A stretch of 64,000 nucleotides of DNA from Coriobacteriia bacterium (lineage in GTDB: Bacteria > Actinomycetota > Coriobacteriia > Anaerosomatales > SLCP01), in NCBI GenBank assembly GCA_030603745.1, contig JAUVXE010000007.1, positions 43,392 through 107,391 of the forward strand, given 5' to 3'. Below the pieces are notes generated by a model. The model was not told the origin of the DNA and ran no database searches. It was given only the letters and a program-made list of their open reading frames with translations. Both the position numbers and the translations under genes were made by a program. Positions 1 to 54,688 of this stretch are shown here, piece by piece (the first letter of the stretch is position 1; every line of letters begins with the position of its first letter).

Positions 1-1022
1 CCCCGCTTCACCGCGGCGCCCGGCATCCCCCAGACCACCGAGGTCTCCTCGTTCTGCGCGATCGTCGCCCCGCCGGCGGCGCGCACGGCGTCGAGGCCGG
101 CGGCGCCGTCGGTGCCCATCCCGGTGAGCACCACGCCCACCGCCCGCTCGCCGAACACCTCGGCGACGCTCTCGAACAGGGGGTCGGCCGCGGGCCGCAC
201 TCCGTGGATCGCGGACGTTTCGCGATCGAGGCGCAGGACCGGGCGACCGGCCTCGAGGCGGACCCGGAGGTGCGCCCCGTACGGCGCGAGGTACGCTCGC
301 CCGGGCTCGAGCGCCGTCCCGTCGGCGGCGATCTCGACCGGGACCCTGCCCACCGCTGCCAGCCGCCGCGCCAACGAGGTCGCGAAGCCGTCGGGCAGGT
401 GCTGGACGACGAGGTAGGCGACCGACTGCGCGGGGTCGATCCCGGCGAACACGCGCTCGAGCGCGGGCGGACCACCGGTGCTCGACGCGATGGCGACGAC
501 CGCCGAGACCGCGCCGCGCGTGTCCGCCGGTGCGGGCGGTGCCGGCTCCGCGGGAGCCTCGGACGCCACGGAGGCGGCCTCGGCATCGGCAGGAGGCGCC
601 TCGGCGTCACGCACGGTGCGCGGCGTGGCCCGGTAGGCGGTCTTGATCGTCTTGAGCAGCTGATCGGAGAGCTCGCCGATCGAGGTGGCGAACCCGCTGC
701 GGGGCTTCGGGATGAAGTCGACCGCGCCGAGGGAGAGCGCCTGGTAGGTGGTCTCCGGGTCGTCGAGCGAGCTCAGCATGACCACCCGCGCCGATGAGTA
801 GCGCGGGAGCTGCTCGAGCGCCTCGAGGCCGGTGAGCTCGGGCATCTCGATATCGAGCGTGATCACGTCGGGGTCGAGCCGCTTCGCCTGTTCGATCGCC
901 TCGACGCCGTTCTTGGCCACCCCCACGATCTCGATGCGCGGGTCGAGCGCGAGCGCCCGCGAGAGGATCTGCCGGATCAGCGCGGAGTCATCGACGATGA
1001 GTACGTTGATGGTGGATCGCAT
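1..1022 (-). CDS. cheB: Chemotaxis protein-glutamate methylesterase CheB (REC + methylesterase); 3' end runs off the window
   Basis: Absent from the ORF track because there is no in-window stop. Hand translation from ATG at 1022..1020 gives [39 protein letters not shown] (REC domain). At the window edge it reads ...[45 protein letters not shown] (CheB catalytic domain). It starts 12 nt after the cheY stop. Confidence 0.9.
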   Translation of the reverse strand, partial: [340 protein letters not shown]

Positions 1023-4204: not shown

Positions 4205-5248
4205 GTGATGAGCGTCCGTTCCGCGTTCACGAAGGTGACCGTCTGCTTCCTGTCGCTCGTCATGATCGGGGCGTCGGGCGGGCTCGCGCTCGCGGCGGCC
4301 GCGGACTACGCGAGCCGTGACGAGGCGCCCGCGGGCGTGTCCGTCGCGGGGGTCGAGGTAGGCGGCCTCACGCGTTCCGAGGTCCGCCTCGCGATCGAGC
4401 GTGCCACCGTCGAGCCCCTCTCCCAGCCGCTCACCGTGACCGCCGACGGCGACCGGTACGAGATCGACCCTGCCGACTACGTCACCGTCGACATCGAGTC
4501 GGCACTGGCGCGCGTCTACGAGCCGCGCACCGGCTCCACCCTCGCAGCACGCGCGCTGCGCCTCGCCACGGGCGATGTCGTCGACCACGTGGTCGAGCCC
4601 GAGGTCACCGTCGACACCGCGGCGCTCGCCGAGGCGGTCGCCGGGTTCGCGAGCGACGTCGACTCGGAGCCGGTCGACGCGGCCGTCGGGGTCATCGACG
4701 GCGAGTTCCGGCTGACCGAGCCCGTCGAGGGTCGCCGTCTCGCCAGGGAGGCCGCGGTCTCCTCGCTCGAGGCGGCTTTGCTCGCCGGGGATCCCGCGGT
4801 CGACCTCGCCGTCGAGCCGGTCGAGCCTGCCGTGGCCGCCGAAGACCTCGGCGCCACGATCGTGGTCCGCCTCGCCTCGCGCACCCTCGAGCTCTACGAC
4901 GGGGCGACCATCGACCGAACCTACCGGGTGGCCGTCGGCAAGCCCGGCCACGGCACGCCGAGGGGGAGCTGGAAGATCGTCGCGAAGCGCTACCTCCCCA
5001 CCTGGGGCAACCCCGGGAGCGCCTGGGCCGTGAACATGCCGCGCAGCATCCCGCCCGGGCCGAACAACCCCCTCGGCACGCGTGCGATGAACCTGAACGT
5101 GTCGGGCATCCGGATCCACGGCACGTCGGACGTGGGCTCGATCGGGACCGCGGCGAGCCACGGGTGCGTGCGCATGGTCCGCCGTGACGTCGAGGAGCTC
5201 TACGACCTCGTCGAGGTGGGGACGCCGGTCTTCATCGTGACCCGCTAG
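4205..5248 (+). CDS. L,D-transpeptidase (YkuD domain) with N-terminal membrane anchor
   Basis: 347 aa with an N-terminal hydrophobic segment (VCFLSLVMIGASGGLALAAAA). The C-terminal YkuD catalytic motif is IRIHGTSDVGSIGTAASHGCVRM. Confidence 0.85.
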   Translation: MMSVRSAFTKVTVCFLSLVMIGASGGLALAAAADYASRDEAPAGVSVAGVEVGGLTRSEVRLAIERATVEPLSQPLTVTADGDRYEIDPADYVTVDIESALARVYEPRTGSTLAARALRLATGDVVDHVVEPEVTVDTAALAEAVAGFASDVDSEPVDAAVGVIDGEFRLTEPVEGRRLAREAAVSSLEAALLAGDPAVDLAVEPVEPAVAAEDLGATIVVRLASRTLELYDGATIDRTYRVAVGKPGHGTPRGSWKIVAKRYLPTWGNPGSAWAVNMPRSIPPGPNNPLGTRAMNLNVSGIRIHGTSDVGSIGTAASHGCVRMVRRDVEELYDLVEVGTPVFIVTR

Positions 5249-8386: not shown

Positions 8387-9967
8387 TCACGTTCCCCGAG
8401 GGACAGGCGAATCCTGCCCGTCCTCACCGTCCCTGCCGCCCCGCGGGGGCCGTCTGCGCCCCTCCGTCTCGCCGGGGAGGAGGAACTCCTCGGCGAAGGA
8501 ACGGGCGTCGTAGACGTCGAGCCCGCGTGCCCTGCCGATGACCTGCAGAGTGGGGTCGCCCGTGAGGAGCGAGCGCGTCCGGAGCGCGAGCGTGAGCGTC
8601 TCCGCCTGGTCGGGATCGAGGCCGTAGGTGCGCCCCACGATCGAGACGTCCGGACGCGAGATCTCACGCTCCTCGAGCGGCGGCAGGCCGGGGAACGCCT
8701 CCGGCACCACCGCGGAGGCCGGAGCCGCGACGAGCCGGACCCTTCCCCACCGGGCGCGACGCCCGGCGAGAAGGTCGCGCAGCGCGGGCAGGGCCGGTCC
8801 GCTCACCGCGACGGTCACCGCCCGCAGGTCGAACAGGAGCAGCAGGGGCGCGCCGAACAGCAGGAACGCCGAGAGCGCGGCGAGCAGGCCCGGTCCTCCC
8901 GGCCACAGGGTCAGCATGCCCGCACGTGCGGCCCCGTCCCACTCCCACGCTTGCACGCGCGCGTTGCCGGTGTCCGCGATCCACGCGACGCCCCCGGCGA
9001 CCGCGACGTCGTTCGGGAAGGCGAGCTGCCCGGCCGCGCCCCCCGGCTCGCCGAGGCGCGCGACCTCGCTCCCGCTCTCGGAGACGAGCACGACCTGGTG
9101 CGAGAAGGCATCGGCGAGCGCGAAGTAGACCGGGGCGCCGGGCTCGGCCATCACCACGTCGAAGCCGCGCACGAGCCGGCCGAGCGGCAGCGAGCGCACC
9201 TGCTCGCCCTCGCCGTCGAACTCCACGAGCCGGCGGTTGTTGCTGTCCGCGATCCACACGCGCCCGCCGAGCGCCTTGACCGCGTTGGGATAGTCGAACC
9301 CGTCACCGGCGTCGGGGGCGCCGGTCTCCTCGGCGGAGCGCGGCAGCACGCCGAGGACCTCGCCGTCGCGGGCCAGGTGCCAGACCCGGTGCGGGCCGGA
9401 GACGTCGGTGACGTAGAGCGTGCCGTCGTCGGCGACATCGACCGCGAGCGGCGCCCAGAGGGGGTCGGGCACCGGCGTGGTCTCGAGCGAGGGGGTGATC
9501 GTCTCGACGAACGAGCCGGTCGCCAGGTCGAACGCGAGCACCGCCGAGAGCGCGCGGTCGGTCACGTAGAGCTCGCCGACCCGCTCGTTGGCGGCGAGGT
9601 AGAGCGGCACCTCGAGCTCCGTCTCGCCGAGGGGCTCCTCGGCGGCGCCGTCGATCCGGAACACGGCGACCAGCCCCGCGAGGGAGTCGCCAACGTAGAC
9701 GCGGTCGTCGGCGACGGTCACGGAGAGCGGGCGCAGCAGTGCCGGGTCGCCCGTCCGCGGGAGAGAGAACGCGTAGGCGGGCGGCGTGGGCCGTCCGGCG
9801 GCGTCGGGGCGCGGCGTGATCGGTCCGCCGAGGGCGCGGAGCACATCGGGGACGAGCCCCGCCAGGCCGAGGAGTGCGAGCAGGACGACGGCGATATGGC
9901 GCGCCTGCCGTCTGCGCCGGTATGCGCGCACGGTTCGCGTGCTCGGACGATCGCTGCGCTTCGGCAC
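8387..9967 (-). CDS. Membrane-spanning NHL-repeat beta-propeller protein with conserved cytoplasmic C-terminal domain (paralog 1)
   Basis: 526 aa. The order is an N-terminal TM (IAVVLLALLGLAGLV), then NHL-like blades (VYVGDSLAGLVAVF, LYVTDRALSAVLAF, LYVTDVSGPHRVWHL, VWIADSNNRRLVEF, AWIADTGNARVQAW). A second TM follows (LLAALSAFLLFGAPLLLLF), then a roughly 150-aa C-terminal domain shared with the 18695..20239 protein. Confidence 0.8.
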   Translation of the reverse strand: MPKRSDRPSTRTVRAYRRRRQARHIAVVLLALLGLAGLVPDVLRALGGPITPRPDAAGRPTPPAYAFSLPRTGDPALLRPLSVTVADDRVYVGDSLAGLVAVFRIDGAAEEPLGETELEVPLYLAANERVGELYVTDRALSAVLAFDLATGSFVETITPSLETTPVPDPLWAPLAVDVADDGTLYVTDVSGPHRVWHLARDGEVLGVLPRSAEETGAPDAGDGFDYPNAVKALGGRVWIADSNNRRLVEFDGEGEQVRSLPLGRLVRGFDVVMAEPGAPVYFALADAFSHQVVLVSESGSEVARLGEPGGAAGQLAFPNDVAVAGGVAWIADTGNARVQAWEWDGAARAGMLTLWPGGPGLLAALSAFLLFGAPLLLLFDLRAVTVAVSGPALPALRDLLAGRRARWGRVRLVAAPASAVVPEAFPGLPPLEEREISRPDVSIVGRTYGLDPDQAETLTLALRTRSLLTGDPTLQVIGRARGLDVYDARSFAEEFLLPGETEGRRRPPRGGRDGEDGQDSPVPRGT

Positions 9968-12453: not shown

Positions 12454-13641
12454 TTACTTGTTGTGGCATTCCTGGCAGACACCACGGTTGTCGAGACGCA
12501 GCAGCGCGTTGCTCTGCGTGGGATCGACGCCACCGTTACCGGAGTCGGGCTCAGGATCGGTGCTGTTCCACACGTTGGCGTAGCCCTCCATCGTGACTGC
12601 GGAGCCGTGCGCAACGTGGCAGGTCAGGCAGTCGACCCAGGAATCCGAGCCGACCACGCCACCATCGGTCGCCAGCGGCACACCGGGGTTACCGATGAGC
12701 GGACGCGGCCCGAGGTAGTTGGACATGGGGACGTTCACCGGGTGACGGTGACGGGTCACCATGCCGAAGCCATCTGCGGCGTCGTAGGCGCCGGCGGGAT
12801 CGATGGTCCTGACCTTGTAGCCGTCAGCGTCGTACACGCCGACGTTGGTGGTGCCGGACTCGACCACGTACTGCGTGTGGCACGCCGCACACCAGTTGCT
12901 GATGCCCTTGTTGGCATCGCCGCCGGGCGCCTTGGCGTACTGCGGGGTGGTGTAGTTCGGCTCGTAGTCGTTCATCTGCGCCGCGCCGGGCTCGTGGAGG
13001 AGCCAGCCGCCGGCCGGATAGTTGGTCTCGTTCGAGATCACGTACGGGGTGGGAGTGAACTCACCCGGCACGAGCTCGTCGTAACCGCCGACCCGCACGC
13101 CGTTCACGACATCCTTGAGGATGCGGTAGTTGGAGCTACCGTGCACGTCGTGGCAGGAGGTGCAGCTCATCGGGATGGCGGGACCCGCACCCGTGCTGAA
13201 CGGGAAGGGACCGCCGTCGGGGCCACCGCCCCACGCCGGCCAGGAGCCTGCGACCGAGTGCTTGCTGTCGCCGACGCCGTGCTCGTTGTTCAGGTCGAAA
13301 AGACCCGAGTTCAACGGAGCACCGAGGTCGCCCCACTCGTCACTCTCGTAGACACCGTCGACCACGTTGGTGGCCGCACCGGCGGCAGCGGAGCCGTGGC
13401 AGGTCAGGCAGAACTCGTAGACCTCGTCGGCGGTGGAGATGAGCAGGGCGCTGCGCTGCTCGTTCGCGCTGTTCGTCCACGTGATGGGACTCGCAGCAGT
13501 GTGGGCCCGGTGGCAACCGGCGCATGCGTCGGTGTCCATCGAGTAGCCACCGTGGATCGCGAAGTTAGCGAGCGCGATGCCGGGGGTGAGCATGACCGCC
13601 GCCACAACGGCGATCGCGAATGCGATTGACAGCTTCCGCAT
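12454..13641 (-). CDS. OmcS-like secreted hexaheme c-type cytochrome
   Basis: Six CxxCH motifs: CAGCH, CLTCH, CTSCH, CAACH, CLTCH, CQECH. The signal peptide is AVVAAVMLTPGIALA. Motif order and flanks recall Geobacter OmcS. These are the mature N-terminus NFAIHGG..CAGCHRAH, CTSCHDVHGSSNYRIL, NWCAACHT...RHRHP, CLTCHVAHGS and the C-terminal CQECHNK. ATG 13641 follows a GAGAGAGGGG RBS; the track start GTG 13650 overlaps the fdnH-like stop. Confidence 0.8.
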   Translation of the reverse strand: MRKLSIAFAIAVVAAVMLTPGIALANFAIHGGYSMDTDACAGCHRAHTAASPITWTNSANEQRSALLISTADEVYEFCLTCHGSAAAGAATNVVDGVYESDEWGDLGAPLNSGLFDLNNEHGVGDSKHSVAGSWPAWGGGPDGGPFPFSTGAGPAIPMSCTSCHDVHGSSNYRILKDVVNGVRVGGYDELVPGEFTPTPYVISNETNYPAGGWLLHEPGAAQMNDYEPNYTTPQYAKAPGGDANKGISNWCAACHTQYVVESGTTNVGVYDADGYKVRTIDPAGAYDAADGFGMVTRHRHPVNVPMSNYLGPRPLIGNPGVPLATDGGVVGSDSWVDCLTCHVAHGSAVTMEGYANVWNSTDPEPDSGNGGVDPTQSNALLRLDNRGVCQECHNK

Positions 13642-13646
13642 ACCTA

Positions 13647-14507
13647 TCACCCCTCTCTCATTCCGGCCGACTCTTCCATGTTCCGCTGACGGCGGGCGAT
13701 CACCGCGAGCAGGCCACCGGCGAAGATCGTCGGCACGAGCGCTGCCTTGGCGAACGGGCTGTTCAGCAGGTTCGACACCATCGGCGTGATGTGATCCTCG
13801 ACGAACGGATCAGCCTTGGGCTGTACGAGCAGGGCGGTCTTGCTTGCCCAGACCATACTACCATCGCCGTGTGCCGACAGGTAGCCGTTGGCGGGGTTGC
13901 TCACCCACGCGACGACCGCGTCGCGCGTGTCCCACTTCATGGCCTTGGCCGGGCAGGTGTAGACGCAGCTCGGCTCGTGGTCCATCTCGGGGATCGCGGG
14001 GCTACCCGGCAGCCGCTGGCCGTTGGTGGGCAGCGGGTTGCCGTAGGCGACGCCGCGCTGCGTGGTGGCAGCGGCGATGTCGGCATCGGAACCGGCGCGG
14101 CCCCAGCACAGGGTGCACTTCCACGACTTCGAGGCGGCGAACAGGTCGCTACCTTCGCCGACCTTGGGATAGCCGGAGCGCTTGCAGTCCACCACGCACT
14201 GACGGTTGCACTGGCTCGGGTTGCACTTGTCGGGATCGATCGACACCGCGCCGTTGGCCTGCTTGGTCAGCGCCTTGAACGGGCACCGGCGGACGCAGGG
14301 CGGATCGGGACAGTGCCAGCAGCTGAAGCGGACGAACGGACCCATGTCCACGCGCTTCTGGGACTTGATCATGACTCGCGTCCCCGGATCGACCTTGTGG
14401 ACGCCGTCGCTGAGCGCCTTCATCTGCCAGGTACGCTTGCAGCTGATGACGCAACCGCTGCATCGGACACACCTGTCGACATCCTGGAATACTGCCATCC
14501 TAGTCAT
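13647..14507 (-). CDS. FdnH-like 4x[4Fe-4S] electron-transfer subunit with C-terminal membrane anchor
   Basis: 286 aa with ferredoxin-type Cys clusters (CVRCSGCVISC, CWHCPDPPCVRRCP, CNRQCVVDC, CTLCWGR, CVYTCP). A C-terminal TM helix is present (ALVPTIFAGGLLAVIA). An AAGGAGGTG RBS precedes the start, which lies 14 nt after the fdnG-like stop. Confidence 0.85.
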   Translation of the reverse strand: MTRMAVFQDVDRCVRCSGCVISCKRTWQMKALSDGVHKVDPGTRVMIKSQKRVDMGPFVRFSCWHCPDPPCVRRCPFKALTKQANGAVSIDPDKCNPSQCNRQCVVDCKRSGYPKVGEGSDLFAASKSWKCTLCWGRAGSDADIAAATTQRGVAYGNPLPTNGQRLPGSPAIPEMDHEPSCVYTCPAKAMKWDTRDAVVAWVSNPANGYLSAHGDGSMVWASKTALLVQPKADPFVEDHITPMVSNLLNSPFAKAALVPTIFAGGLLAVIARRQRNMEESAGMREG

Positions 14508-14521
14508 CGTTCACCACCTCC

Positions 14522-17500
14522 TTATGCCTTCTCGATCCTGCAGGTGCAGGCCTTGTACTCGGGGATTCGGGTGTTCGCATCGAACGCGTCGATGCACAGG
14601 TCGTTCGCCCGGCTACCGGTCGAGAGACCCTTGTCGCCCCAGTGCCACGGGATGGCGACCACGCCGCGACCGACCCGCTGGTTGCTGCTCGCACCCACGC
14701 CCACCCGGGCGATGAAGCCCTTCGCGAAGACCTCACCCTCGGTGCGGCCCTCCTGGTCGCTCGTGCTGTTGCTGCGAGCGGTGACGATGTTGACCATGTC
14801 GCCCGTCTTGATCTGGTACGTCGCCGCGTCTGCGGAGTTGATCTCGATCCACGGAGTGGGCTCGATCTCGACGTTCCATGGGTTGTTGCGGGTGATCGGT
14901 CCGCCCTGGAAGTGCTCGACGCACCGGATCGTGGTCAGCACGAGCGGGAACTGGGTCGGATCGGCGGTCGGTCCGGGGTAGCTCGCATCGGACGTCGCGA
15001 TCGTGGTGCCGCTGTAGCCGCCGTTGTCCGAGTTGCCGCTGTGGATGAGGTCCCACTTGGCGACGCCACGCGTGTTGCGGCCCCAGAGCGCCGCAAGATC
15101 CTCGCGCGGAGTCTCATAGGGCTCGGTGTGGCCAGGGAAGCGGCCGGAGTAGCTGAGCCCGGGTGAGACGTAGTGCGGGCTTGCGGGGTTCGAGGTCGCC
15201 GGCAGGACCACGTCGGGACGGTCGGCGAGACCGTGCACGAAGCGCCACCAGCGGGAGTAGTGGATCGTGGCCGGCTGGGCGGGCACGAAGAGGCGTGCCA
15301 CCGAGTCGGGGGTCATGTAGTAGTCGACCACGTCGCCCGGGATGTCCAGGTTGTTGTAGAGGACACGACGGTTGACGAGCCACGAGTAGCCCCACGCCGG
15401 GTAGGCGTACGTCTGGTTCGGGTCCGCGTTGTTGCGGCTCTTGGCCCGGTTGTCGACCGCCCAGTTGCCCTGACCGACATGCACGTTGGTGCTGCGGGTG
15501 GAGTCCCACGCGCCGGTGTAGAGCCACATGGTGCCGCCCGTGTAGACGGGGCGGGTGCACTGGATGTAGAGCGACTCGGCGACGAGCTCGGAACCGTAGA
15601 CGGTCGCGGACTCGGGTGCCGTCTTGTTGGCATACCACATCTCGGTGGTATCGGAACGGTCCTCGAAGGCCACGGCATCGGCCGGGCTCCAGCCGTGCTG
15701 GTCCTTGTAGAGCTTGTTGTAGACCGCGGTGTCGGCCGGGTTGTTGGAGACGCCCCAGTTGAGCGGAGCGCTGTTCCACACCGCACGGATGTGGCTGAAC
15801 GCGTCGGCCTTGTCGAACGCGTACGCGAGCCTCAGCAGAAGCTCGAGGTCGGCCTTCGAGTTGCCCACCGGGGCGATGGCCCGCTCGCGCCACTGGAGCA
15901 CGCGACCGGAGTTGGCGGTCGAGCCTGCTTCCTCGACGTGGGAACACGCCGGGAGGAGGTAGGTGACGCCGTCGCTCTTGCGCTTGGCCGCCGAGGTCTC
16001 GGTGTCGAACATGTCCACGACCACGAGGACGTCGAGCTCCTCGAGGCCGTCGCGGACGTACTTCTGGTTGGGCTCGGTGACCGCGGGGTTCTGTCCCCAC
16101 ACGACGCATCCCTTGATCTGGCCGGCGGCCATCTTGCGGAACATCGTGATGTGGTCGTCACCGTTGGTCTTGGGCCACAGGTTGTAGATCGCGTCGACCG
16201 CGGCGCGCTTGGCGGCCTTGGCTGCGGCGTCGTTGAACGGCATCGCGTCGATGACGTCGAAGTCGCCGAACCACTTGAGGGTCATGTTGTAGAACCCGCG
16301 ACCCTGCAGGCCGTGGGTGGCGTTGTCCAGCGCCCCGGCCTCGGTCCTGGTGCGATAGGCATCCTCGTACGAGTCGTTCATGACCTGACGGCCGTTGGCG
16401 CCCCGGACGGGGAGACCCCAGAGGCGGTCCATGTACTTGCCGAACGCGTTCGCGTCGTTCATCGCGGGGGTGGCGTGCCCGTAGGCCATGAGGCCGGGGT
16501 TGCCGGAGTAACCCGGGATGAGGTGCTGCAGCACACCCATGTCGGTCGAACCCTGCACGTTGTGGATGCCGCGCAGCGCGTTGATCGCGCCACCGGCGCG
16601 ACCGACGTTGCCGGTCAGCGCCATGAGCGTGGCGAACGCTTTGACGTTCTGCGAGCCGTGGGTGTGCTGGGTGAGGCCCATCGCGTAGAGCATCTGGGTC
16701 GCACGGTAGTTCGCCTTGTCACGCGGGTCCTGCTGGCGGTCGGACGCGCCGACGACCGGCTGACCGGTGAGGTACGAGCTCATCGCGCGGCTGTTGTCCA
16801 CGTACGCCTGGGCCACGAAGAGGAGCTCCTCCTCGGTGCAGCCGCAGATGTTCGCGACGACGCTCGGGGTGTAGGCCGCGACGTGCGCCTTCAGCGCGCT
16901 GTACGCGGTACCGGCGTCACGGCAGTCGCCCGCCTTGACCGGCAGGAACTCGACGGCGGTGGCGTCCGGGTCGCCCGGATCGGCCTTGTAGTCGAAGCGC
17001 TCGTAGTCGGTGCCGGCCGAGTTCACCACGAACCGGGCGTCGGTGTACTTCGAGCCGCCCGGCACGAACCTGAGCGTGCTCGGCGTGGTCTCGTCACCGA
17101 TGTTGAAGAACTGGTTGCGAGTCGTGTCGGTGTCGCTGCTCTGAGTCTCGTTGAGGAACTCGAAGAACAGGTCGCGGACCGGCTGCGGCACGCTGCCCGA
17201 GAGACCCTCCATGCGACGGATGACCTCGCGGACGAGGCCCATCACGAAGGCGATGTCGGTTCCCGGACGGATGCGGATGAAACGGCCGCCCTTCTGCTCG
17301 GCAAGGACCGCGGTGCGGGTCTTGCGAGGATCGATGACGATCATCTTGGCAGCGGGGCGCTCGTCATGCGCGCGGAGGATGTGGGCGATGCTCGCCGGAT
17401 GGTTCTCGACGGCGTTGGAGCCCATGAACACGAACAGCGTCGAGTTCGCCATGTCGGCCCAGTTGTTCGTCATGGCGCCTCGTCCGAATGCGGCGGCCAG

Positions 17501-18157
17501 ACCGGCCACCGTGGACGAGTGTCATATACGTGCCTGGTGCTCGATGTTGCTCGTGCCGAAGTTCGCGATCACCTTGCGGTAGAGGTTGTTCTGCTCGTTG
17601 TTGAGGTGCGACGAGCCGAAGAACGCAACCGACTTGGAGTTGTGGCCGTTGGCCGGGGTGACGTCACCGCGAGCGTCCTTCATCGCGAGGGCGATCTCGT
17701 CCATCGCGGTGGCCAGCGGGATCTTGTCCCAGTCGTCGTTGCCGGTGCGCTTGTACGCCACGCCGTCCGTGAAAGACGGGTCGTAGGCGAACTTCGGGTT
17801 GGCCGGGTGCGGACCCGGGTAGGCGCCGAGGCGCCGCGAGTTCGTCACCAGCTGGAACGTGCCTGCGCCCTTGGCGCACAGGCCGCCTGCGTTCCACGGA
17901 GCCATGTGGTCGCCGTAGACATCGAGCACGTTACCGTCGGCGTCGATGTCGACGAGCTGGCCACAGCTCGCGGAGCAGTACGGACAGGTGGTGTGGTAAG
18001 TGTGGTCCACTTCAGCTGCGTTAGCGCTCGAAGGCGCGGCGGCGAACTCGAGACCCGCTGCTCCTACCGCAGCGGTTGCCGCGCCTGCCTTCAAGAACTG
18101 ACGACGAGTCAGCTGCAGACCCTTACCTCCATCCTGGTCCTTATCAAGTTTACCCAT
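14522..18157 (-). CDS. Tat-exported selenocysteine-containing molybdo/tungstopterin oxidoreductase, FdnG-like formate dehydrogenase catalytic subunit (1211 codons, Sec at codon 212)
   Basis: Track ORFs 17522..18157 and 14522..17509 are in the same frame, joined through TGA at 17522..17524. Read-through gives [33 protein letters not shown], matching the FdnG/FdhF Sec active-site context. A twin-arginine signal (TRRQFLKAGAATAAV) and an N-terminal 4Fe-4S motif (CPYCSASCG...CAKG) are present. A SECIS hairpin lies directly downstream. Confidence 0.9.
17481..17517 (-). promoter_or_regulatory. Bacterial SECIS stem-loop for the fdnG-like TGA
   Basis: The mRNA reads UGA CAC UCG UCC ACG GUG GCC GGU CUG GCC GCC GCA UUC GGA CG. 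The lower stem is CGUCC/GGACG and the upper stem GGUGGCC/GGCCGCC, with apical loop GGUCU. Counting U of UGA as 1, U17 and G23-U24 fall in the same register I recall for the E. coli fdhF SECIS. Confidence 0.8.
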
Positions 18158-18285
18158 GCTTCTTCCCTCTCTTAGGTTCCGCGGTCCTCGAAGGATTTCG
18201 AGACCTCGCGAATACGGAGCGTGACCCGGGGCGGATCACCGAACACGTCGTGGCTTCGACCTCCCTTCCCGTGCAGACAGAGGGG

Positions 18286-18345
18286 GTGAGAAAAGGAAAA
18301 GACCGACGACAGACAGAGCGCGGACGCCCTGAAAGCGGTCGGTCT
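18286..18345 (-). terminator. Candidate riboswitch expression platform (terminator hairpin plus U-tract with competing alternative pairing)
   Basis: The mRNA reads GAGACAGAugaAGACCGAC...UCUGUCUgucGUCGGUCUUUUCCUUUUCU. AAGACCGAC/GUCGGUCUU pairing is followed by a U-rich tract. The interleaved GACAGA/UCUGUC pairing is mutually exclusive with it. Confidence 0.45.
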
Positions 18346-18420
18346 TCATCTGTCTCGCCTCCCTTACCCCGTACACCGATGGGACGGACCCCATTGCCGG
18401 GAGGTCCGCCACAGCACCAG

Positions 18421-18530
18421 TCTCCTTTCCAAGGTCCGGAAGGACGGGAGGCGCCAGGGTTTCCCCGGACACCCTATCGGCCGCGGCGCCATGGCTTTCG
18501 CGGTAGGCGTCCGGGGCTCGGAGACGATGT
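18421..18530 (-). promoter_or_regulatory. Moco/Tuco-type riboswitch aptamer candidate in the 5' leader of the fdnG-like operon
   Basis: The mRNA reads CUCCGAGCCCCGGACGCCUACC...CCGAUAGGGUGUCCGGGGAAACCCUGGCGCCUCCCGUCC...GGAAAGGAGA. It shares five ordered sequence blocks with the tupA leader at 36403..36510. Closing helix: UCUCC...GGAGA. Confidence 0.6.
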
Positions 18531-18576
18531 TCCATTTTCACGGTCCGCGGGACGTTGCCGGTCGATCCCGGGACCC

Positions 18577-18592
18577 TGTAACAATTGTTACA
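18577..18592. promoter_or_regulatory. Perfect 16-bp palindromic operator TGTAACAATTGTTACA (site A)
   Basis: The palindrome is perfect. It lies 15 nt downstream of the predicted -10 box, at roughly +9..+24. Related copies occur at 26076..26091 and 33648..33663. Confidence 0.6.
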
Positions 18593-18607
18593 ATACGCTC
18601 ACTCGCA

Positions 18608-18636
18608 AGATTATCCCGACCGCCCGACCCTGTCAA
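18608..18636 (-). promoter_or_regulatory. Sigma-70/SigA-type promoter for the fdnG-like/omcS-like operon
   Basis: The minus strand reads TTGACA-gggtcgggcggtcggga-TAATCT, a consensus -35, a 17-nt spacer and a good -10. It sits in the only low-GC intergenic stretch upstream of the riboswitch. Confidence 0.6.
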
Positions 18637-18694: not shown

Positions 18695-20239
18695 CTACTC
18701 CCGGCCACCCTGCTCGGCGTCGCTCAGGTACTGCTCGATGAAGAGCCGCGCGTCATAGGCGTCCACGCCCAGCGCGCGCGCCGCGACGGCCAGCGCGGCG
18801 TCCTCGGTGCAGAGCCGCTTGGTGGTCCGGGCGAGCACGAGCATCAGTGCCTCGTCCCGGGTCACCCCGACCCGCTTCATCAGGTCGCGCACGTCGGACT
18901 CGGAGTGCTTGACCAGCGTGATCATCTCGTCGAGACGCACCCCGTCGAGCTCACGGCCGGCGTAGGTCGCGGCATGCTCCTCGGGAGCGATCCAGCGCCA
19001 GCGCTTGCGCGACGCGGCCTCGGCGAGCAGTCCGGCCTCCGCCATCGCCACCAGGAAGTCCTCGGTCACCGCGAACTTCCGGCGGCGCAGGAGGAGCAGG
19101 AGGGGCAGCAGAAGGAGCGGGCTCAGGCAGAGCGCCCACTGGGAGGGCGTCTCGGGCAGCGCGTCGGGCACGAGCGGCACCGGCTCGGGCCAGCCCCACA
19201 CCTGCACCTGATGGTTGAGGCGGTCGGTCACGAAGATCCGCGTGCGGCGGTCGATCGCGAGGTCGTTCGCGTAGCGGAACTGCCCGGGGCCGATCCCGCT
19301 CTGGCCGAACCCGGTGATCCGCTCACCGCCTGACTGGTAGATGTCGACCTGGTGCGCGAGCGCGTCGGCGATGTAGATGCGGTCCTCGGCGTCGATGTCC
19401 ATGCCGCGCGGGATACCGGAGGTCCGCATGATGCGGTCGAACTGCCCGTTCAGGTCGAAGACCTGGACGCGGCGGTTGTTGCTGTCGGATACGTAGATCT
19501 CGTCACCCATGACGAGCACGTCGTTGGGGAAGTAGAAGCGCCCGGGGAGTTGCGAGATCTCGTCGGCCTGTGCGAACGCGCCGAACCGCCGGAGCTCCTG
19601 ACCGTTCTCGTCGAAGACGATGACCTGGTGGAGCTCCACGCGACCGACATCGGTGACGTAGAGGTTGTCGTTCTCATCGAACCCGAGGCCGAGAGGGCCC
19701 CACAGGCGCGCCTCCTCAGGATCGGCGGGGACGACCTTGCGCAAGAAATCGCCATCGAGCGTGAACACGTAGATCGCGCGGTGGCGGCGGTCGGTGACGA
19801 AGAGCTCGTCTTTGCTGTTGATCGCGAGGAAGACCGGGGTGCCGAGCTCCGTGTTCTCGCCGTCGGCGATCTCGTTGAAGGTGAACAGGTAGTCGCCGTC
19901 CACCGTGTAGACACGCACGACGCGCGACGCGGAGTCGGTGACGTAGACCCGGTCGTCACGGCTGACCTCGACGCCGATCGGCGCGGTGAGCGCGTTCTCT
20001 CCGGCGGGACCCGAGATCGAGTAGAGATAGCGCGGCGGATCGACCTGCTCGTCGAAGGTCCGCCCGAGGCCGGGGATCGGCAGGGTGCGGTTCACCGAGA
20101 AGTAGTAGATGGAGTAGAGCACGAGCGCGAGGAGCGCCAGCAGAAGCGCGAGGGCGACCCACTTCTTCCACGCGGCACGGCCGGCGTCCGCGCGGCCGAA
20201 CGAGGCCCGTTCCGGTTGCGTCTGATGATCCATCGACAC
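18695..20239 (-). CDS. Membrane-spanning NHL-repeat beta-propeller protein with conserved cytoplasmic C-terminal domain (paralog 2)
   Basis: 514 aa with an N-terminal TM (WVALALLLALLALVLYSIYYF). NHL blades follow: VYVTDSASRVVRVY, LFVTDRRHRAIYVF, LYVTDVGRVELHQVIVF, IYVSDSNNRRVQVF, IYIADALAHQVDIY, IFVTDRLNHQVQVW. A second TM (LCLSPLLLLPLLLLL) precedes a C-terminal domain ending ...LCTEDAALAVAARALGVDAYDARLFIEQYL. Confidence 0.85.
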   Translation of the reverse strand: MSMDHQTQPERASFGRADAGRAAWKKWVALALLLALLALVLYSIYYFSVNRTLPIPGLGRTFDEQVDPPRYLYSISGPAGENALTAPIGVEVSRDDRVYVTDSASRVVRVYTVDGDYLFTFNEIADGENTELGTPVFLAINSKDELFVTDRRHRAIYVFTLDGDFLRKVVPADPEEARLWGPLGLGFDENDNLYVTDVGRVELHQVIVFDENGQELRRFGAFAQADEISQLPGRFYFPNDVLVMGDEIYVSDSNNRRVQVFDLNGQFDRIMRTSGIPRGMDIDAEDRIYIADALAHQVDIYQSGGERITGFGQSGIGPGQFRYANDLAIDRRTRIFVTDRLNHQVQVWGWPEPVPLVPDALPETPSQWALCLSPLLLLPLLLLLRRRKFAVTEDFLVAMAEAGLLAEAASRKRWRWIAPEEHAATYAGRELDGVRLDEMITLVKHSESDVRDLMKRVGVTRDEALMLVLARTTKRLCTEDAALAVAARALGVDAYDARLFIEQYLSDAEQGGRE

Positions 20240-26075: not shown

Positions 26076-26091
26076 CGTAACAGCAGTTACA
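26076..26091. promoter_or_regulatory. Palindromic operator CGTAACAGCAGTTACA (site C)
   Basis: GTAAC-N4-GTTAC core identical to sites A and B. It lies about 135 nt upstream of the cyt b start, in the 200-bp intergenic gap. Confidence 0.45.
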
Positions 26092-26142: not shown

Positions 26143-26391
26143 TCAGACGTCCTCGAACGAAGCGGACGCCGTGGGCTCGAGATCCGCCCTGCCGAGGAGC
26201 TCCAGCGCCCGGTCCACCTCGGCGGGCTCAAGGCGCAACGCGATCCCGCAGAGCCCCGTCCCGAGGGTCTTGGGGGCCGGCACGGGGACGACGTCGATCC
26301 CGAGGTCTTTCAGGAGCTGTTCCGCCGAGAGCGCCCGGTGGGTCGACCCGAACCCGAGCACGGTGAACAGGCGCGGCTCGCGCACGGTCAC
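26143..26391 (-). CDS. DUF3343-like small protein (putative S/Se carrier)
   Basis: GTG 26391 overlaps the desulfurase stop (GTGA). The 82-aa product begins VTVREPRLFTVLGFGSTHRALSAEQLLKDLGIDVVPVPAPKTLGTGLCGIALRL, the typical DUF3343 pattern as I recall it. Confidence 0.65.
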   Translation of the reverse strand: MTVREPRLFTVLGFGSTHRALSAEQLLKDLGIDVVPVPAPKTLGTGLCGIALRLEPAEVDRALELLGRADLEPTASASFEDV

Positions 26392-27557
26392 GATGCCAGC
26401 TCCCGGAGTGCCGAAAGCACGGTGTCGACCTGCTCTGCGGTGTTGCCCCACCCCACGCCGAAACGCACCGCGCCGCACTCAAGCGTTCCCACGGTCTCGT
26501 GCGCCCAGGGGGTGCAGTGCAGCCCGGCCCGTGCCGCGATGCCGTATGCGCGGTCGAGCTCGTAGGCGATCCTGTCGGAGTCGAGGGTGTCGTGCACGAC
26601 GGTGACGATCGGCACCCTCGGCACGCCCGGAGGCGGGCCGAGCACTCGGAAGCCCTCGATCGCGAGCACCCCCTCGTGCAGGCGACGGACGAGCTCGGCC
26701 TCGGCGGCACGGAGCGTGGCGCCCTCGGCCTTAAGGAGGGCCGCGGCGGCGCCGAGTCCGACGATCCCGGGCGTGTTGGCGGTACCGGCCTCGTAGCGGT
26801 CGGGACGCTCGGCAGGCATCTCGAGCGAGTCGGAGGCTCCTCCGCCGGTGCCGCCCTCGATCTGCACCTCGAGCTCGAGGCCCGGGACGAGGTAGAGCAG
26901 CCCGATCCCCTGCGGGCCGAGCATGCCCTTATGGCCCGAGGTCGCGTAGGCGTCGGGGGCGAGCGAGGCGAGGTCGACGTCGAGGTGCCCGGCGCCCTGG
27001 GCGCCGTCCACGAGCATGAGCGCGCCGTGCTCGTGCGCGATGTCGGCCAGGTCGCCGATGAGCTGGACCGTGCCGGTCAGGTTCGAGGCGTGCTGGCAGA
27101 CGACCGCGCGGGTGGGCGCGGCGCCGACCTCGCGCTCGACGTCGGCCGGGTCGACGAGCCCGGTGGGATCCGCCTTCACCACCACGACCTCCACGCCGGC
27201 GCGGGCGAGGTGCGCGAGGGGACGTGCGACGGCGTTGTGCTCCATGGAGCCGACCACCACCCGGTCGCCCGGTCGCAACGAGCCCTTGAGCATGAGGTTG
27301 CACGCGGCCGTGCAGCCGGACTGGAAGAGCAGGTCGCGGGTGTCTGGCACGCCGAGGAGCGTCGCACAGGCGCGACGGGCCTCGAGGATCGCGCGCGACG
27401 AGGCGAGCGCCAGCGCGTAGGCCCCGCGCCCCGGGTTGCCGCCGAGTTCGGTGAGCGCGCGCACCACCGCGTCGACGACGGGCCCCGGCTTGGGCCACGA
27501 GCTCGCGCCATGGTCGAAGTAGGCCACCGGCGGGCGGGTCTCCTCGGCGGGCGACAC
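26388..27557 (-). CDS. Class-V aminotransferase-fold cysteine desulfurase / selenocysteine lyase family protein
   Basis: GTG 27557 lies 2 nt after the mogA stop. The PLP-lysine motif is ATSGHKGMLGPQGIGLLY. The N-terminus YFDHGASSWPKPGPVVDAV is typical for the family. The upstream part of the track ORF is artefact. Confidence 0.8.
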   Translation of the reverse strand: MSPAEETRPPVAYFDHGASSWPKPGPVVDAVVRALTELGGNPGRGAYALALASSRAILEARRACATLLGVPDTRDLLFQSGCTAACNLMLKGSLRPGDRVVVGSMEHNAVARPLAHLARAGVEVVVVKADPTGLVDPADVEREVGAAPTRAVVCQHASNLTGTVQLIGDLADIAHEHGALMLVDGAQGAGHLDVDLASLAPDAYATSGHKGMLGPQGIGLLYLVPGLELEVQIEGGTGGGASDSLEMPAERPDRYEAGTANTPGIVGLGAAAALLKAEGATLRAAEAELVRRLHEGVLAIEGFRVLGPPPGVPRVPIVTVVHDTLDSDRIAYELDRAYGIAARAGLHCTPWAHETVGTLECGAVRFGVGWGNTAEQVDTVLSALRELAS

Positions 27558-27559
27558 CG

Positions 27560-28045
27560 CTAGTGGCCCCCGCCCGCGATCATCTCGACGGCGTGCGTGA
27601 GCTGGTCGGCGATGAAGGAGAACGACTCGCGGGCGGCCTTCTCGCTGCCGGGAAGGTTGACGATGAGCGTGGTGCCGCGCAGGCCGGCGGTCCCGCGGGA
27701 GAGCATGGCGCGCGGGGTGACCTTGAGGCTCTCGGCCCGGATGTGCTCGGCGATGCCGGGAGCGCGCCGGTCCGAGACCCGGTCGGTGACCTCGGGCGTG
27801 ATGTCGCGCCGGCTGAAACCGGTGCCACCGCAGGTCAGAACCACGTCGGCCTCGTCGAGGTCGGCCATCTGGATGAGCGAGTCGGCGATGCACTCGTCCT
27901 CGTCAGGGCAGACGTGGTAGGCGATGACGAGCCACCCGCGCTCCTCCACGAGCTCGATGAGCGCCTGGCCGGCGGTGTCCTCGGCGCCACCCGCGGCGCG
28001 GGTGTCCGAGCAGGTCAGGATCCCGACCCTCAAGTCGCGTCCCAC
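27560..28045 (-). CDS. MogA/MoaB-family molybdopterin adenylyltransferase-like protein
   Basis: 161 aa with VGILTCSDTRA...VVLTCGGTGFSRRDITPE...LPGSEKAA, the MogA/MoaB signature. Confidence 0.85.
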   Translation of the reverse strand: MGRDLRVGILTCSDTRAAGGAEDTAGQALIELVEERGWLVIAYHVCPDEDECIADSLIQMADLDEADVVLTCGGTGFSRRDITPEVTDRVSDRRAPGIAEHIRAESLKVTPRAMLSRGTAGLRGTTLIVNLPGSEKAARESFSFIADQLTHAVEMIAGGGH

Positions 28046-33647: not shown

Positions 33648-33663
33648 TGTAACCATTGTTACA
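33648..33663. promoter_or_regulatory. Palindromic operator TGTAACCATTGTTACA (site B)
   Basis: Differs from site A at 1 position. It lies 60 nt upstream of the mobA-fdhD GTG. Its promoter-distal-to-proximal half overlaps a TACAAT -10-like hexamer on the minus strand. Confidence 0.55.
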
Positions 33664-35513: not shown

Positions 35514-36395
35514 CTACTCCGCGTCGGGGATGAAGAGGGGCTCGCCGTACGTGTCGACCCCGAAGCTTTCGATGATCGCCTGGCCGGCGGGCGAGACGAT
35601 CCAGTCGGCGAAGGCCTGCGCGCCCTCGAGGTTGCCCGCGTCGGTCACGACGATCACGCCGTACGGGTTGAAGAGCGCCTCATCGCCCTCGACCGCGACC
35701 GTGAGGTCGAGGCGGTCCCGCATCGCCAGGTACGTGCCGCGGTCCGCCAGCGTGTACGCCCCGATCTCGGACGCCATGGTGAGCGCCTCGCCCATGCCCT
35801 GCCCGATCGAGAGGTACCACTCCCCGGCAGGCTCGATGCCCGCGAGCGACCAGAGCGAGCGCTCCGTGGTGTGGGTGCCGGAATCGTCGCCACGCGAGAC
35901 GAACACGTGCGCACCGCCGGCGATCGCGGTCAGGGCCGCCGCCGCGTCACTCGTGCCGGCGATGCCGGCGGGGTCCGCCTCGGGGCCGACGATCACGAAG
36001 TCGTTGTACATGACGTCGCGGCGCTCGACGCCATAGCCCTCGGCGACGAACTCCTCCTCCTGCGACCTGGCGTGCACGAGCAGGACGTCGGCATCACCTG
36101 CTCGGCCGATCTCGAGCGCCTGGCCGGTCCCGACCGCGACCACGCTCAGGCGGTACCGCGGATAGGCGTCCTCGAAGGCCGGGACCAGCTCGGTGAACAG
36201 GCCCGAGTCCTCGGTCGAGGTGGTCGAGGCGATGATCACGTTCGTGACCTCGACCTCTTCGACGGGTTCGGGTGCGGACGGCTCCTCGGCGACCTCTTCG
36301 GCGCCGCACGCGGCGAGACCGGATACGAGTACGAGCGAGAGGAGCAGTGCGAGTGCCTGCCGCTTGAGCGCGGGCGAAGGACGAAGCTCGAGCAT
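35514..36395 (-). CDS. tupA: Tungstate-binding lipoprotein TupA-like
   Basis: ATG 36395 follows an AAAGGAGA RBS. A lipobox is present (LVLVSGLAACG). TupA-type motifs: ASTTSTEDSGL, VGTGQALEIGRAGDADVLLVHA, SRGDDSGTHTTE, FNPYGV. Confidence 0.8.
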   Translation of the reverse strand: MLELRPSPALKRQALALLLSLVLVSGLAACGAEEVAEEPSAPEPVEEVEVTNVIIASTTSTEDSGLFTELVPAFEDAYPRYRLSVVAVGTGQALEIGRAGDADVLLVHARSQEEEFVAEGYGVERRDVMYNDFVIVGPEADPAGIAGTSDAAAALTAIAGGAHVFVSRGDDSGTHTTERSLWSLAGIEPAGEWYLSIGQGMGEALTMASEIGAYTLADRGTYLAMRDRLDLTVAVEGDEALFNPYGVIVVTDAGNLEGAQAFADWIVSPAGQAIIESFGVDTYGEPLFIPDAE

Positions 36396-36402
36396 GTATG
36401 GG

Positions 36403-36510
36403 TCTCCTTTCCACCGGGAGGCGAGGAGGTTTCCCTTCCCCACCCTATCGGTCCGGGACCCGTGGCCCGCTCGGCTGGGCTGTAGGGCATCCGGACTCGG
36501 AGATATGTGG
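36403..36510 (-). promoter_or_regulatory. Moco/Tuco-type riboswitch aptamer candidate in the tupA leader (RBS-sequestering)
   Basis: The mRNA reads CUCCGAGUCCGGAUGCCCUAC...CCGAUAGGGUGGGGAAGGGAAACCUCCUCGCCUCCCGGUGGAAAGGAGA-cccauac-AUG. The 3' strand of the closing helix (GGAGA) is the tupA Shine-Dalgarno. The ordered blocks match those at 18421..18530. Confidence 0.6.
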
Positions 36511-36532
36511 CCGCTGAAGCGACCGCACGAAG

Positions 36533-36596: not shown

Positions 36597-37490
36597 CTAC
36601 CGCTCCACCGCGGAACGCAGGTGGCCGAGGAACGCCTCGGCGGCGCGGGTGAGCGTCGTGCGCGGGGTGACGATGTAGAGCGGGCGCGAGACGGGAAAGC
36701 CCTTGGCCCTGACGGTGGCCACGGTGCCGAGCTCGAGCGCCTTCTCGGCGACCCATGAGCTCACCATGCCGAGCCCGAGTCCTCCCTCGACCGCGCTCAC
36801 GATCGCCTCGCCGGTGCCGAGCTCGGTGACCACGTGGAGCTCGGCCACGTCCACACCCGCCGAGCGGAGGGCCCCCTCGGCGATCTGGCGCGTGCCCGAG
36901 CCCTCCTCGCGCATGACGAACGGCTCGGCGGTCACCTCCGCGATATCGACCCGCTCCGCAGTGGCGAACCGGTGGTCGGGCGGGCAGATGAGCACGATGT
37001 CGTCGGTGCCCATGGGTTCGAAGTCGGCACGCGCTCCCTTGACGACCGCGCCGGTCACGCCGAGGTCGGCCTCGCCCGCCACTACAGCGTCGACGACCTG
37101 CGCGGTGTCGGCGACCGCGATCGAGACCGCCACCTCGGGGTTGGCGCGCAGGAAGCGCCCGAGCAGGCGCGGCAGCACGTACTGTCCCGGGGTGGTGCTC
37201 GCGGCCAGGGTCAGCCGCCCGGTGACCTGCTCGCTCATGCGCGCGAGGTCCTCACGCGCCTGCTCGAGTTCGCCGAGGACCGCCCGCGCATGCGGCAACA
37301 GGGCGGTGCCCGATTCGGTGAGTTCGATCTTGCGGTATCCGCGGTCGAGCAGCGTCACGCCGAGGTCGGACTCGAGGGCCTGGACCTGCATCGTGACCGC
37401 GGGCTGCGAGATGCCCATCTGCCGGGCGGCCGCGGAGAACGAGCCGTGGTCGACCACCATCACGAACGCTCTGATCTGTGCGAGGTTCAC
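36597..37490 (-). CDS. LysR-family transcriptional regulator
   Basis: GTG 37490 starts VNLAQIRAFVMVVDHGSFSAAARQMGISQPAVTMQVQALESDLGVTLLDR, a LysR wHTH. The remainder resembles a LysR substrate-binding domain. The track ORF start 37613 is an artefactual extension. Confidence 0.85.
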   Translation of the reverse strand: MNLAQIRAFVMVVDHGSFSAAARQMGISQPAVTMQVQALESDLGVTLLDRGYRKIELTESGTALLPHARAVLGELEQAREDLARMSEQVTGRLTLAASTTPGQYVLPRLLGRFLRANPEVAVSIAVADTAQVVDAVVAGEADLGVTGAVVKGARADFEPMGTDDIVLICPPDHRFATAERVDIAEVTAEPFVMREEGSGTRQIAEGALRSAGVDVAELHVVTELGTGEAIVSAVEGGLGLGMVSSWVAEKALELGTVATVRAKGFPVSRPLYIVTPRTTLTRAAEAFLGHLRSAVER

Positions 37491-37603
37491 CGCACGCCTC
37501 CCGTCGGTCCGGCGCCCGCGCGCCCGGTCGAGATGTAATGCTACCTGAACCGGTTCGCCCGTGGGACGTTTAGCGGGCCGATGGTGGTGGTACCATCCCC
37601 GGC

Positions 37604-44809: not shown

Positions 44810-44869
44810 CCCCTTCCGCTCCGTGGACACTCCACCTCCCCGCCTGCGGCGGAGTCGGTCGGGGTGCAT

Positions 44870-52602: not shown

Positions 52603-52699
52603 TGGCGGAGGCGCGTGCGAATCGAACACACCCGGGACGCTCTTCACGCCCCACTACGGTTTTGAAGACCGCGGAGCCCACCAGGACCCATCCGCCTCC
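52603..52699 (-). tRNA. selC: tRNA-Sec (anticodon UCA), selC
   Basis: 97 nt: GGAGGCGGAUGGGUCCUGGUGGGCUCCGCGGUCUUCAAAACCGUAGUGGGGCGUGAAGAGCGUCCCGGGUGUGUUCGAUUCGCACGCGCCUCCGCCA. The anticodon loop is CU-UCA-AA. It has a 6-bp D-stem (GGGUCC/GGGCUC), a long variable arm, a T-loop UUCGAUU and an encoded CCA. It lies 76 nt downstream of selB. Confidence 0.9.
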
Positions 52700-54682: not shown

Positions 54683-54688
54683 GCGCGC

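Follow-up and report, generated by a model that had tools for sequence, protein, structure and literature searches.

What controls the synthesis of a selenocysteine-containing formate dehydrogenase and the multihaem cytochromes encoded with it? We consider this question for a 64,000-nucleotide stretch of the genome of a Coriobacteriia bacterium (assembly GCA_030603745.1, contig JAUVXE010000007.1, positions 43,392 to 107,391), here called the window. A 537-bp intergenic gap lies between the stop codon of an NHL-repeat gene (18695) and the ATG of the formate dehydrogenase gene fdhA (18157), both on the minus strand. The gap has a GC content of 0.626, the lowest among the intergenic gaps measured, as had been noted when the sequence was first read; the whole window has 0.709. 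That original prediction placed four elements in the gap: a promoter, a palindromic operator, a riboswitch for the molybdenum or tungsten pterin cofactor (Moco or Tuco), and a terminator with an antiterminator. All four are found where it placed them, and three of them are well supported. We put at about even the chance that this stretch serves as promoter and 5′ leader for an operon of selenocysteine formate dehydrogenase and cytochrome genes under two independent controls, one acting at the DNA level and one at the RNA level.

A P3-less riboswitch in the fdhA leader

The fdhA leader contains an aptamer of the RF01055 family, which scores well above the gathering score (Table 1). The match spans model positions 1-135 and is full length, not truncated, with the P3 columns deleted. 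The alignment includes the conserved core (CUCCGAGCC, GGCC..AGGG, GGAAAC, CGCCUCCCG and GGAAAGGAG), and P1, P2, P4, P5 and the GAAA tetraloop are all present. This is the element of about 110 nt closed by UCUCC...GGAGA that the original prediction likened to a Moco/Tuco riboswitch ahead of a pterin-dependent enzyme, and its closing strands belong to P1. A permissive Rfam search of the leader (E <= 10) found no other family of note; the sole extra matches are miRNA-like, lie on the hairpin and fall far below threshold, and were rejected.

The conserved leader structure expected among orthologues is there: the aptamer occupies the same position in two of two orthologous leaders (L001 and L002) and in 11 of 13 further orthologous fdhA leaders. 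A scan of metagenome contigs for the promoter/operator pattern described below added 17 aptamer loci, 13 of them demonstrably followed by fdhA; a protein-based scan of metagenome contigs gave no match. The P3 columns are also deleted in a second aptamer within the window and in L001 and L002, the two orthologues whose alignments were inspected. The deletion therefore points to a P3-less subclass of RF01055 and not to a sequence outside the family, and on the covariance-model matches we take membership in RF01055 and in this subclass as established.

The presence of P3 marks the Moco subtype and its absence marks the proposed Tuco subtype. In Regulski et al. 2008 (PMC2408646), 58 of 176 members lack P3, and their distribution follows tungsten-cofactor metabolism, both by organism and by gene. 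P3-less members are also treated as Tuco riboswitches in a 2024 study of Eubacterium limosum (PMC11725836); the available text of these two papers does not report direct ligand binding for the class. We infer from the P3-less architecture that the ligand would be the tungsten form of the pterin cofactor.

The second aptamer, also P3-less, lies 18 kb away, ahead of a tupA-like gene (tupABC). The 3′ strand of its P1 (GGAAAGGAGAC) contains the Shine-Dalgarno (SD) sequence of the tupA-like gene, whose AUG is at 36374. By this arrangement the tupA copy reads as a classical OFF platform, unlike the fdhA copy.

A terminator-like hairpin and a leader open reading frame

Simple consensus scans of the leader called neither a promoter nor a terminator, so we judge both by conservation. 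The terminator scan missed the hairpin H2, about 75 nt downstream of the aptamer, because its stem is bulged and its loop is long. All 13 unique leaders of a first comparison set fold a 37-52-nt hairpin at this position (-24 to -32 kcal/mol). The stem bases are alike (GACCGR/YCGGUC) and the upper stems are unrelated in sequence; RNAalifold retains the seven pairs at the base of the stem throughout (13 of 13 leaders), and four of these pairs show double-sided changes. The 10 nt that follow the stem include five to eight U in each of 21 leaders, from genomes of 58-71% GC. H2 is a conserved terminator-like structure and a predicted intrinsic terminator, and on this point, hairpin and tail alike, the original prediction holds.

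A wider set of 21-25 unique leaders, aligned in register, has a fixed order of elements: P1, a hairpin (H1ext) 0-2 nt later, a purine block, a spacer of 12-25 nt, and the terminator hairpin. H1ext is found in 21 of 21 unique leaders with stems that differ and covary and a near-invariant CCGGCA loop. The same motif recurs on the other side of the aptamer, in the loop of a hairpin next to the operator, again in orthologues too; in the two loops (18393..18400 and about 18555..18562, minus strand) CCGGCA(A) is more conserved than the stems that carry it. No pairing partner or function was found for this loop motif. The base of the terminator hairpin is likewise built from CCGG (GACCGG/CCGGUC).

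The purine block (block A) is near-invariant. It reads UAAGGGAGG and resembles an SD sequence; the form across leaders, GGGGUAAGG(G)AGG, is an extended SD sequence, UAAGGAGG. In the window a leader AUG follows 8 nt after the SD (18366..18358), 5 nt before the 5′ arm of the hairpin. This spacing recurs more often than expected from shuffles of each spacer: AUG, GUG or UUG lies 3-16 nt past the SD in 20 of 25 leaders (9.1 expected), and AUG lies 5-13 nt past it in 18 of 25 (4.1 expected), in spacers of unrelated sequence. The leader start codons are always 2-14 nt ahead of the hairpin 5′ arm. Most of the leader open reading frames (ORFs) stop 0-25 nt after a second SD-like block (block C), often at GUGA.

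Block A is also complementary to the 5′ strand of P1 (GUCUCC with GGAGRC), and the complementarity reaches into the flanks, where the sequences differ by lineage: the complementary stretches are ACGAUCUCC / GGAGGUCGU in L029, UUCGUCUCC / GGAGGCGAA in L117, AUAUCCC / GGGAUAU in L014 and CAGUC / GACUG in L087. Duplexes of the P1 5′ strand with block A give -12.1 kcal/mol for cognate and -9.8 kcal/mol for non-cognate pairs, and 0 of 5000 permutations are as good, in a test that controls only partly for sequence relatedness. This is on a par with the positive control, the true P1 helix, which gives -12.6 and -10.3 kcal/mol (1 of 5000 as good). Block A can also form 8 bp in the window with CGCCUCCC of the aptamer core, a pairing that we considered and rejected: the core CCUCCC gives -13.9 kcal/mol with cognate and -14.5 kcal/mol with non-cognate blocks, and 4507 of 5000 permutations are as good. 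With no cognate advantage, this pairing is probably a by-product of the fact that any SD complements CCUCC.

Predicted folding gives a direction to the P1 and block A relation. The unpaired fraction of the SD core is 0.60 with P1 enforced and 0.30-0.31 otherwise. The increase exceeds 0.2 in 13 of 21 leaders, and no leader shows a drop of that size.

A conserved predicted promoter and a shared operator

The pattern TTGAC(A/G)-16..18-TAnnnT occurs at the same relative place in the window and in 15 of 15 orthologous loci, and on this conservation we regard the promoter as probably real. The TTGACA-17-TAATCT of the original prediction (18636..18608) is in place, but its description as a consensus promoter is overstated, as only three of six -10 positions match. 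Transcription is predicted to start near 18601.

The dyad TGTAAC-N4-GTTACA lies 13-15 nt after the -10 hexamer in the window and in 15 of 15 orthologous loci, with conserved half-sites and four variable central bases. Two matches to the dyad within three mismatches were found where 0.01 per window are expected, and the window holds three dyad sites in all against 0.10 expected. One copy lies between the tungstate-type transporter and a mobA-fdhD gene, overlaps a TACAAT -10-like hexamer and precedes the mobA-fdhD/moeA/mobB/moaA/MOSC/mog operon. The other follows a TATGGT -10-like hexamer by four bases and precedes the genes for cytochrome b561, three multihaem cytochromes, a TPR protein and an NHL protein. 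Because the dyad also stands upstream of cytochrome and cofactor-synthesis operons, it is the mark of a regulon and not a private operator; the perfect palindrome first reported at 18592..18577 is thus confirmed, conserved and regulon-wide. One factor would co-regulate the enzyme, its electron-transfer partners and the cofactor supply.

The operator core (GTAAC-N4-GTTAC) is identical to GTAACnnnnGTTAC, the motif predicted for the HcpR2 branch of CRP/FNR regulators (Rodionov et al. 2005, PMC1274295). We predict that the dyad binds a regulator acting as a dimer, for which a CRP/FNR protein that shares the specificity of HcpR2 is the most likely candidate. The placement of the dyad, at the -10 hexamer or just past it, suggests repression. 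A literature search for the dyad together with formate dehydrogenase gave no relevant match.

The same promoter and operator precede a gene for a [NiFe]-hydrogenase small subunit with a twin-arginine (TAT) signal (Pfam Oxidored_q6) in the high-GC contig L070, and there are candidate further loci of hydrogenase type (L074, L094, L104, L129, L130). This suggests that the regulon may extend to hydrogen oxidation in related contigs. About 100 lower-GC contigs that match the promoter and operator pattern (in the range L016-L135) were considered as a clue to the regulator and set aside as heterogeneous and uninformative. About 40 of these matches are one recurring locus from a gut organism of about 45% GC, where the dyad stands ahead of the gene for a BioY-like membrane protein and is probably a site of an unrelated type.

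How the leader may work

We propose that a sigma-70-type promoter drives the leader and that the dyad, at about +9 to +24, would bind a repressing regulator. The P3-less aptamer would then control premature termination at the hairpin and U-tract downstream. Two pairing partners are available to the P1 5′ strand, namely the P1 3′ strand and the SD-like block. Ligand would lock P1 and expose the SD block, and a ribosome could initiate at the leader AUG, where it would cover the hairpin 5′ arm or keep Rho off the leader; with the terminator blocked, RNA polymerase would read into fdhA. With no ligand, the P1 5′ strand would sequester the SD, no ribosome would load and the hairpin would terminate transcription. 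The link between aptamer and hairpin would be indirect, through a ribosome and not an RNA helix. The net effect would be an ON switch, with apo-enzyme made only when cofactor is available, a direction that suits fdhA because its product needs the cofactor. We consider this whole scheme of DNA and RNA control, with the ON switch acting through a ribosome on the leader ORF, to have roughly equal chances of being right and wrong.

Several observations weigh against the scheme, in addition to the partial control for relatedness in the permutation test. Five of 25 leaders have no canonical start codon in the SD window: ACG stands there in L005, L010 and L011 (one clade) and in L015, and the AUG of L092 is 26 nt after the SD. 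Leader peptides, frames and lengths are not conserved, which takes away support at the coding level, and if a ribosome acts, only its initiation can therefore matter; a conserved leader peptide was rejected on the differing peptides and frames and the leaders that lack a start, and the idea was revived only in the initiation-dependent form given here. Equilibrium folding predicts the hairpin in both aptamer states. Three fdhA leaders (L006, at 4684..5000; L007, of the same sequence; and L019) have no aptamer and are about 140 nt shorter, natural variants of an aptamer deletion. The scheme makes no use of blocks B and C, the CCGGCA loops or the two further hairpins (H3 and H4) conserved between block C and the fdhA SD. 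Of these, block B has two possible pairing partners, block A and block C. The -10 hexamer is weak compared to the E. coli consensus, and experimentally characterised Moco-class riboswitches are OFF switches (PMC2408646; PMC11725836).

The regulator raises points of its own. No CRP/FNR gene was found in the 64-kb window or in the examined orthologous and metagenome loci, and the family assignment is taken from the motif for that reason; tblastn with E. coli CRP and FNR also found no homologue there, in a weak test that used approximate query sequences. A LysR regulator of a selenium-metabolism family lies nearby and is an alternative candidate for the dyad. Sites of LysR-type regulators are of the T-N11-A type. 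The dyad, an even-centred 16-mer, does not fit this pattern, and we rejected such a reading of it; the LysR gene is therefore a secondary candidate.

A terminator and antiterminator made of RNA only, in which the ligand shifts an antiterminator helix (GACAGA/UCUGUC or another) against the hairpin with no ribosome, is an unlikely alternative. Terminator platforms do follow RF01055 aptamers elsewhere, as described in PMC2408646 and PMC11725836. The GACAGA (18354..18349) and UCUGUC (18317..18312) strands of the original prediction exist and interleave with the hairpin, and the helix becomes GACAGG/CCUGUC in L002; however, a 6-bp helix is not above chance, and it occurs only in the window and in L002, the closest relative, and is not evident in L003, L005 or more distant leaders. 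In the window and L005, enforcing P1 frees CAUCGG for the hairpin 5′ arm and the energy gain drops by 2.0-3.5 kcal/mol. A competition between a P1 extension and H1 (the CAUCG repeats) was considered as an antiterminator relay and rejected, since it is limited to the closest clade, is not conserved in the wider set and has weak coupling energies. Constrained ensemble folding with P1 enforced or blocked shifts the hairpin closing energy by -1.2 to +3.5 kcal/mol with inconsistent sign, and in most orthologues by -1.2 to +0.8 kcal/mol. Such weak and inconsistent coupling of P1 to the hairpin means that an RNA-only antiterminator is not evident, and this explanation also leaves the invariant SD-like block and the AUG enrichment unaccounted for.

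Another reading, which we find doubtful, separates the leader ORF, the hairpin and the three blocks (A, B and C) from the riboswitch: they would be an attenuator, or a unit for mRNA stability, that senses something else such as translation status, selenium or formate, and the riboswitch would act elsewhere, for example on Rho loading or mRNA decay. The aptamer-less leaders speak for such a unit: L006, L007 and L019 keep the promoter, operator, SD block, AUG and hairpin as well as blocks B and C, which shows that a riboswitch is not needed for the module to be present. The prediction of the hairpin regardless of aptamer state and the unexplained conservation of blocks B and C and of H3 and H4 fit it as well. 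However, covariation links block A to the P1 5′ strand and the flank of that strand, and the module is therefore physically tied to the aptamer wherever the aptamer is present.

An OFF switch, in which the cofactor represses the operon as in E. coli moaA (a tungsten cofactor shutting down a molybdenum isoenzyme, or feedback on cofactor demand), we likewise hold to be improbable. It has the precedent of all experimentally characterised members, E. coli moaA (PMC2408646) and E. limosum focA and fetABC1, which are up-regulated under tungsten limitation (PMC11725836), and Regulski et al. propose that Tuco could repress Moco enzymes (PMC2408646). However, enforced P1 exposes the SD-like block and never the reverse, the only pterin enzyme of the cluster sits beside a tungstate transporter with a standard OFF platform (SD inside P1) that is built differently, and it would be physiologically less sensible to shut off an enzyme just when the cofactor that it uses is at hand.

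Comparison with known systems

In pyrBI attenuation and in the mgtA Mg2+ riboswitch with mgtL, a ribosome on a short leader ORF decides the fate of a downstream terminator, either intrinsic or Rho-dependent. The fdhA leader would differ in that access to the SD of the leader ORF is set by alternative pairing of the P1 5′ strand. Its leader peptide is not conserved and no codon-specific stalling is implied.

The aptamer resembles the E. coli moaA Moco riboswitch, as described in PMC2408646, in P1, P2, P4, P5, the GAAA tetraloop and the CCUCCC and GGAAAGG core, in its tie to pterin-cofactor genes and in being combined with promoter control by proteins, which in E. coli are ModE and FNR. Unlike moaA, the fdhA-leader aptamer has no P3 and precedes an enzyme that uses the cofactor instead of a biosynthesis operon. 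The fdhA SD lies outside P1, with the aptamer about 260 nt from the start codon; between the two come a hairpin, an SD block, a leader AUG and a terminator, and the logic would be ON, not OFF.

The Tuco riboswitches of E. limosum (wor1, tupABC, fetABC and focA) are closer: P3-less RF01055 members precede a tungstoenzyme operon and tupABC, and a shared transcription-factor site at the promoter is combined with a terminator or a sequestor of the ribosome-binding site (PMC11725836). The fdhA leader comes from a different phylum (Actinomycetota, Coriobacteriia), and its target is a selenocysteine-containing formate dehydrogenase, whereas the E. limosum formate dehydrogenase has no riboswitch (PMC11725836). 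The operator is CcpA-like in E. limosum and HcpR2-like at fdhA. The terminator-type examples in E. limosum are OFF switches, and the study describes no leader ORF.

The HcpR2 system (PMC1274295) has identical half-sites and N4 spacing and also controls redox enzymes in anaerobes. Its regulon comprises hcp and nitrosative-stress genes in Clostridia, Bacteroides and Thermotogales. The sites described here instead stand, in positions typical of a repressor, ahead of the operons for formate dehydrogenase, cytochromes and cofactor synthesis, and no gene for a matching regulator was located in the window or the loci examined.

Genomic context

The genes 3′ of fdhA encode a 4Fe-4S subunit, a hexahaem cytochrome, a membrane protein, an NHL-repeat protein and a 1015-aa multihaem cytochrome. 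The junctions among fdhA and these genes are overlapping or 14 nt, and from this tight spacing it is plausible that the whole downstream electron wire would be tied to cofactor availability, as originally proposed. The hexahaem cytochrome (12454..13650, minus strand) has 398 aa, six CXXCH motifs and Paired_CXXCH matches. Its description as OmcS-like finds no sequence support: no PDB chain matched the protein by sequence at E <= 0.01. FdhA has an in-frame TGA for selenocysteine at 17524..17522 (context …HQARI-U-HSS…), and its closest relatives are from Coriobacteriia and Anaerosomatales metagenome-assembled genomes.

Upstream of fdhA, on the same strand, are the genes for cytochrome b561, three multihaem cytochromes, the TPR protein and the NHL protein. 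The cytochrome–TPR–NHL–fdhA synteny is kept in every orthologous contig examined. Two paralogous NHL-repeat beta-propeller proteins with similar C-terminal regions (8387..9967 and 18695..20239, both minus strand) bracket the formate dehydrogenase operon.

Further along is the cofactor operon, which encodes a mobA-fdhD fusion, moeA, mobB, moaA, MOSC and mog/moaB. The window also encodes a tungstate-type ABC transporter. Its binding protein is TupA-like by best match, below the curated cut-off, and the gene is followed by those for a permease and an ATPase with a TOBE domain. A full selenocysteine toolkit adjoins the cluster and includes tRNA-Sec (72 bits), selB (52775..54682), selA (54689..56110) and a selD-like AIRS protein (56691..57641). 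A Se/S-carrier protein and a class-V aminotransferase (of the cysteine desulfurase / selenocysteine lyase type) are also present near the cluster.

Elsewhere in the window, a c-di-GMP-II-GAG riboswitch (RF03169, 44894..44981, minus strand; 60.5 bits, cut-off 40) precedes a gene for a 1393-aa surface-type protein (40688..44869) with DUF7507, DUF11, CARDB and SdrD-B repeats. A GGDEF-EAL protein is encoded at 57726..59093.

Table 1. Features of the fdhA leader and of related loci, in window coordinates
Feature	Position	Strand	Remarks
-35 hexamer TTGACA	18636..18631	-	direct reading; matches consensus 6/6
-10 hexamer TAATCT	18613..18608	-	TAnnnT type; 17-nt spacer after -35; TATAAT match 3/6
Operator dyad TGTAAC-AATT-GTTACA (TGTAACAATTGTTACA)	18577..18592		perfect 16-mer palindrome, about +9 to +24 relative to predicted transcription start
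Hairpin between operator and aptamer	18542..18576	-	ACCGGCA in loop
Moco/Tuco riboswitch aptamer	18406..18535	-	RF01055, 56.3 bits, gathering score 36, E = 8e-11
P1 5′ strand GUCUCC	18525..18520	-	pairs with P1 3′ strand
P1 3′ strand GGAGAC	18425..18420	-	
Hairpin H1ext	18376..18419	-	begins directly after P1; loop CCGGCAAU at 18400..18393
Block A GGGGUAAGGGAGG	18358..18370	-	extended SD-like; alternative partner of P1 5′ strand; near-invariant
Leader ORF (putative)	18236..18349	-	AUG 18349..18347; 37 codons
Hairpin H2 GACCGAC...GUCGGUC	18344..18301	-	-24 kcal/mol, z = -3.6
U-rich tail UUUUCCUUUUCU	18300..18289	-	directly after H2
Block B CACCCCCUC	18288..18280	-	C-rich; conserved
Block C GGGAAGGGAGGU	18270..18259	-	second SD-like block; conserved
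Hairpins H3 and H4	18175..18255	-	
fdhA	14522..18157	-	TAT signal, Fe4S4, molybdopterin and dinucleotide-binding domains; periplasmic formate dehydrogenase alpha subunit
Third operator copy TGTAACTGCTGTTACG	26076..26091	-	
Second operator copy TGTAACAATGGTTACA	33648..33663	-	
Second P3-less aptamer	36388..36514	-	RF01055, 56.3 bits
LysR regulator	36597..37613 (37613..36597)		NF040786; passes NCBIfam cut-off for selenium-metabolism-associated family
Selenocysteine toolkit	52607..57641 and 26143..27893	-	tRNA-Sec, sel genes and accessory proteins

Significance

Neither the aptamer class nor its P3-less form is new, and its combination with protein regulators has been described before; to this extent the core finding is an annotation. 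The expression platform is, as a hypothesis, possibly new for the RF01055 class. We consider it possible, although somewhat short of an even chance, that a Tuco ON switch works here by a platform undescribed for the class, with the ribosome as antiterminator, together with an HcpR2-like regulon of formate dehydrogenase, hydrogenase, multihaem cytochromes and cofactor synthesis across the Coriobacteriia.

A Tuco-class riboswitch stands before a selenocysteine-containing formate dehydrogenase wired to multihaem cytochromes in a poorly studied actinobacterial lineage. Its placement predicts that the formate dehydrogenase uses tungsten and that synthesis of the enzyme is gated by cofactor supply. 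The design would be an ON switch, whereas all members of the class demonstrated so far switch OFF. A small regulon can be drawn from the shared operator; it would include the enzyme, the cytochromes, cofactor synthesis and, in related contigs, a hydrogenase, and may offer a route to the identity of the regulator.

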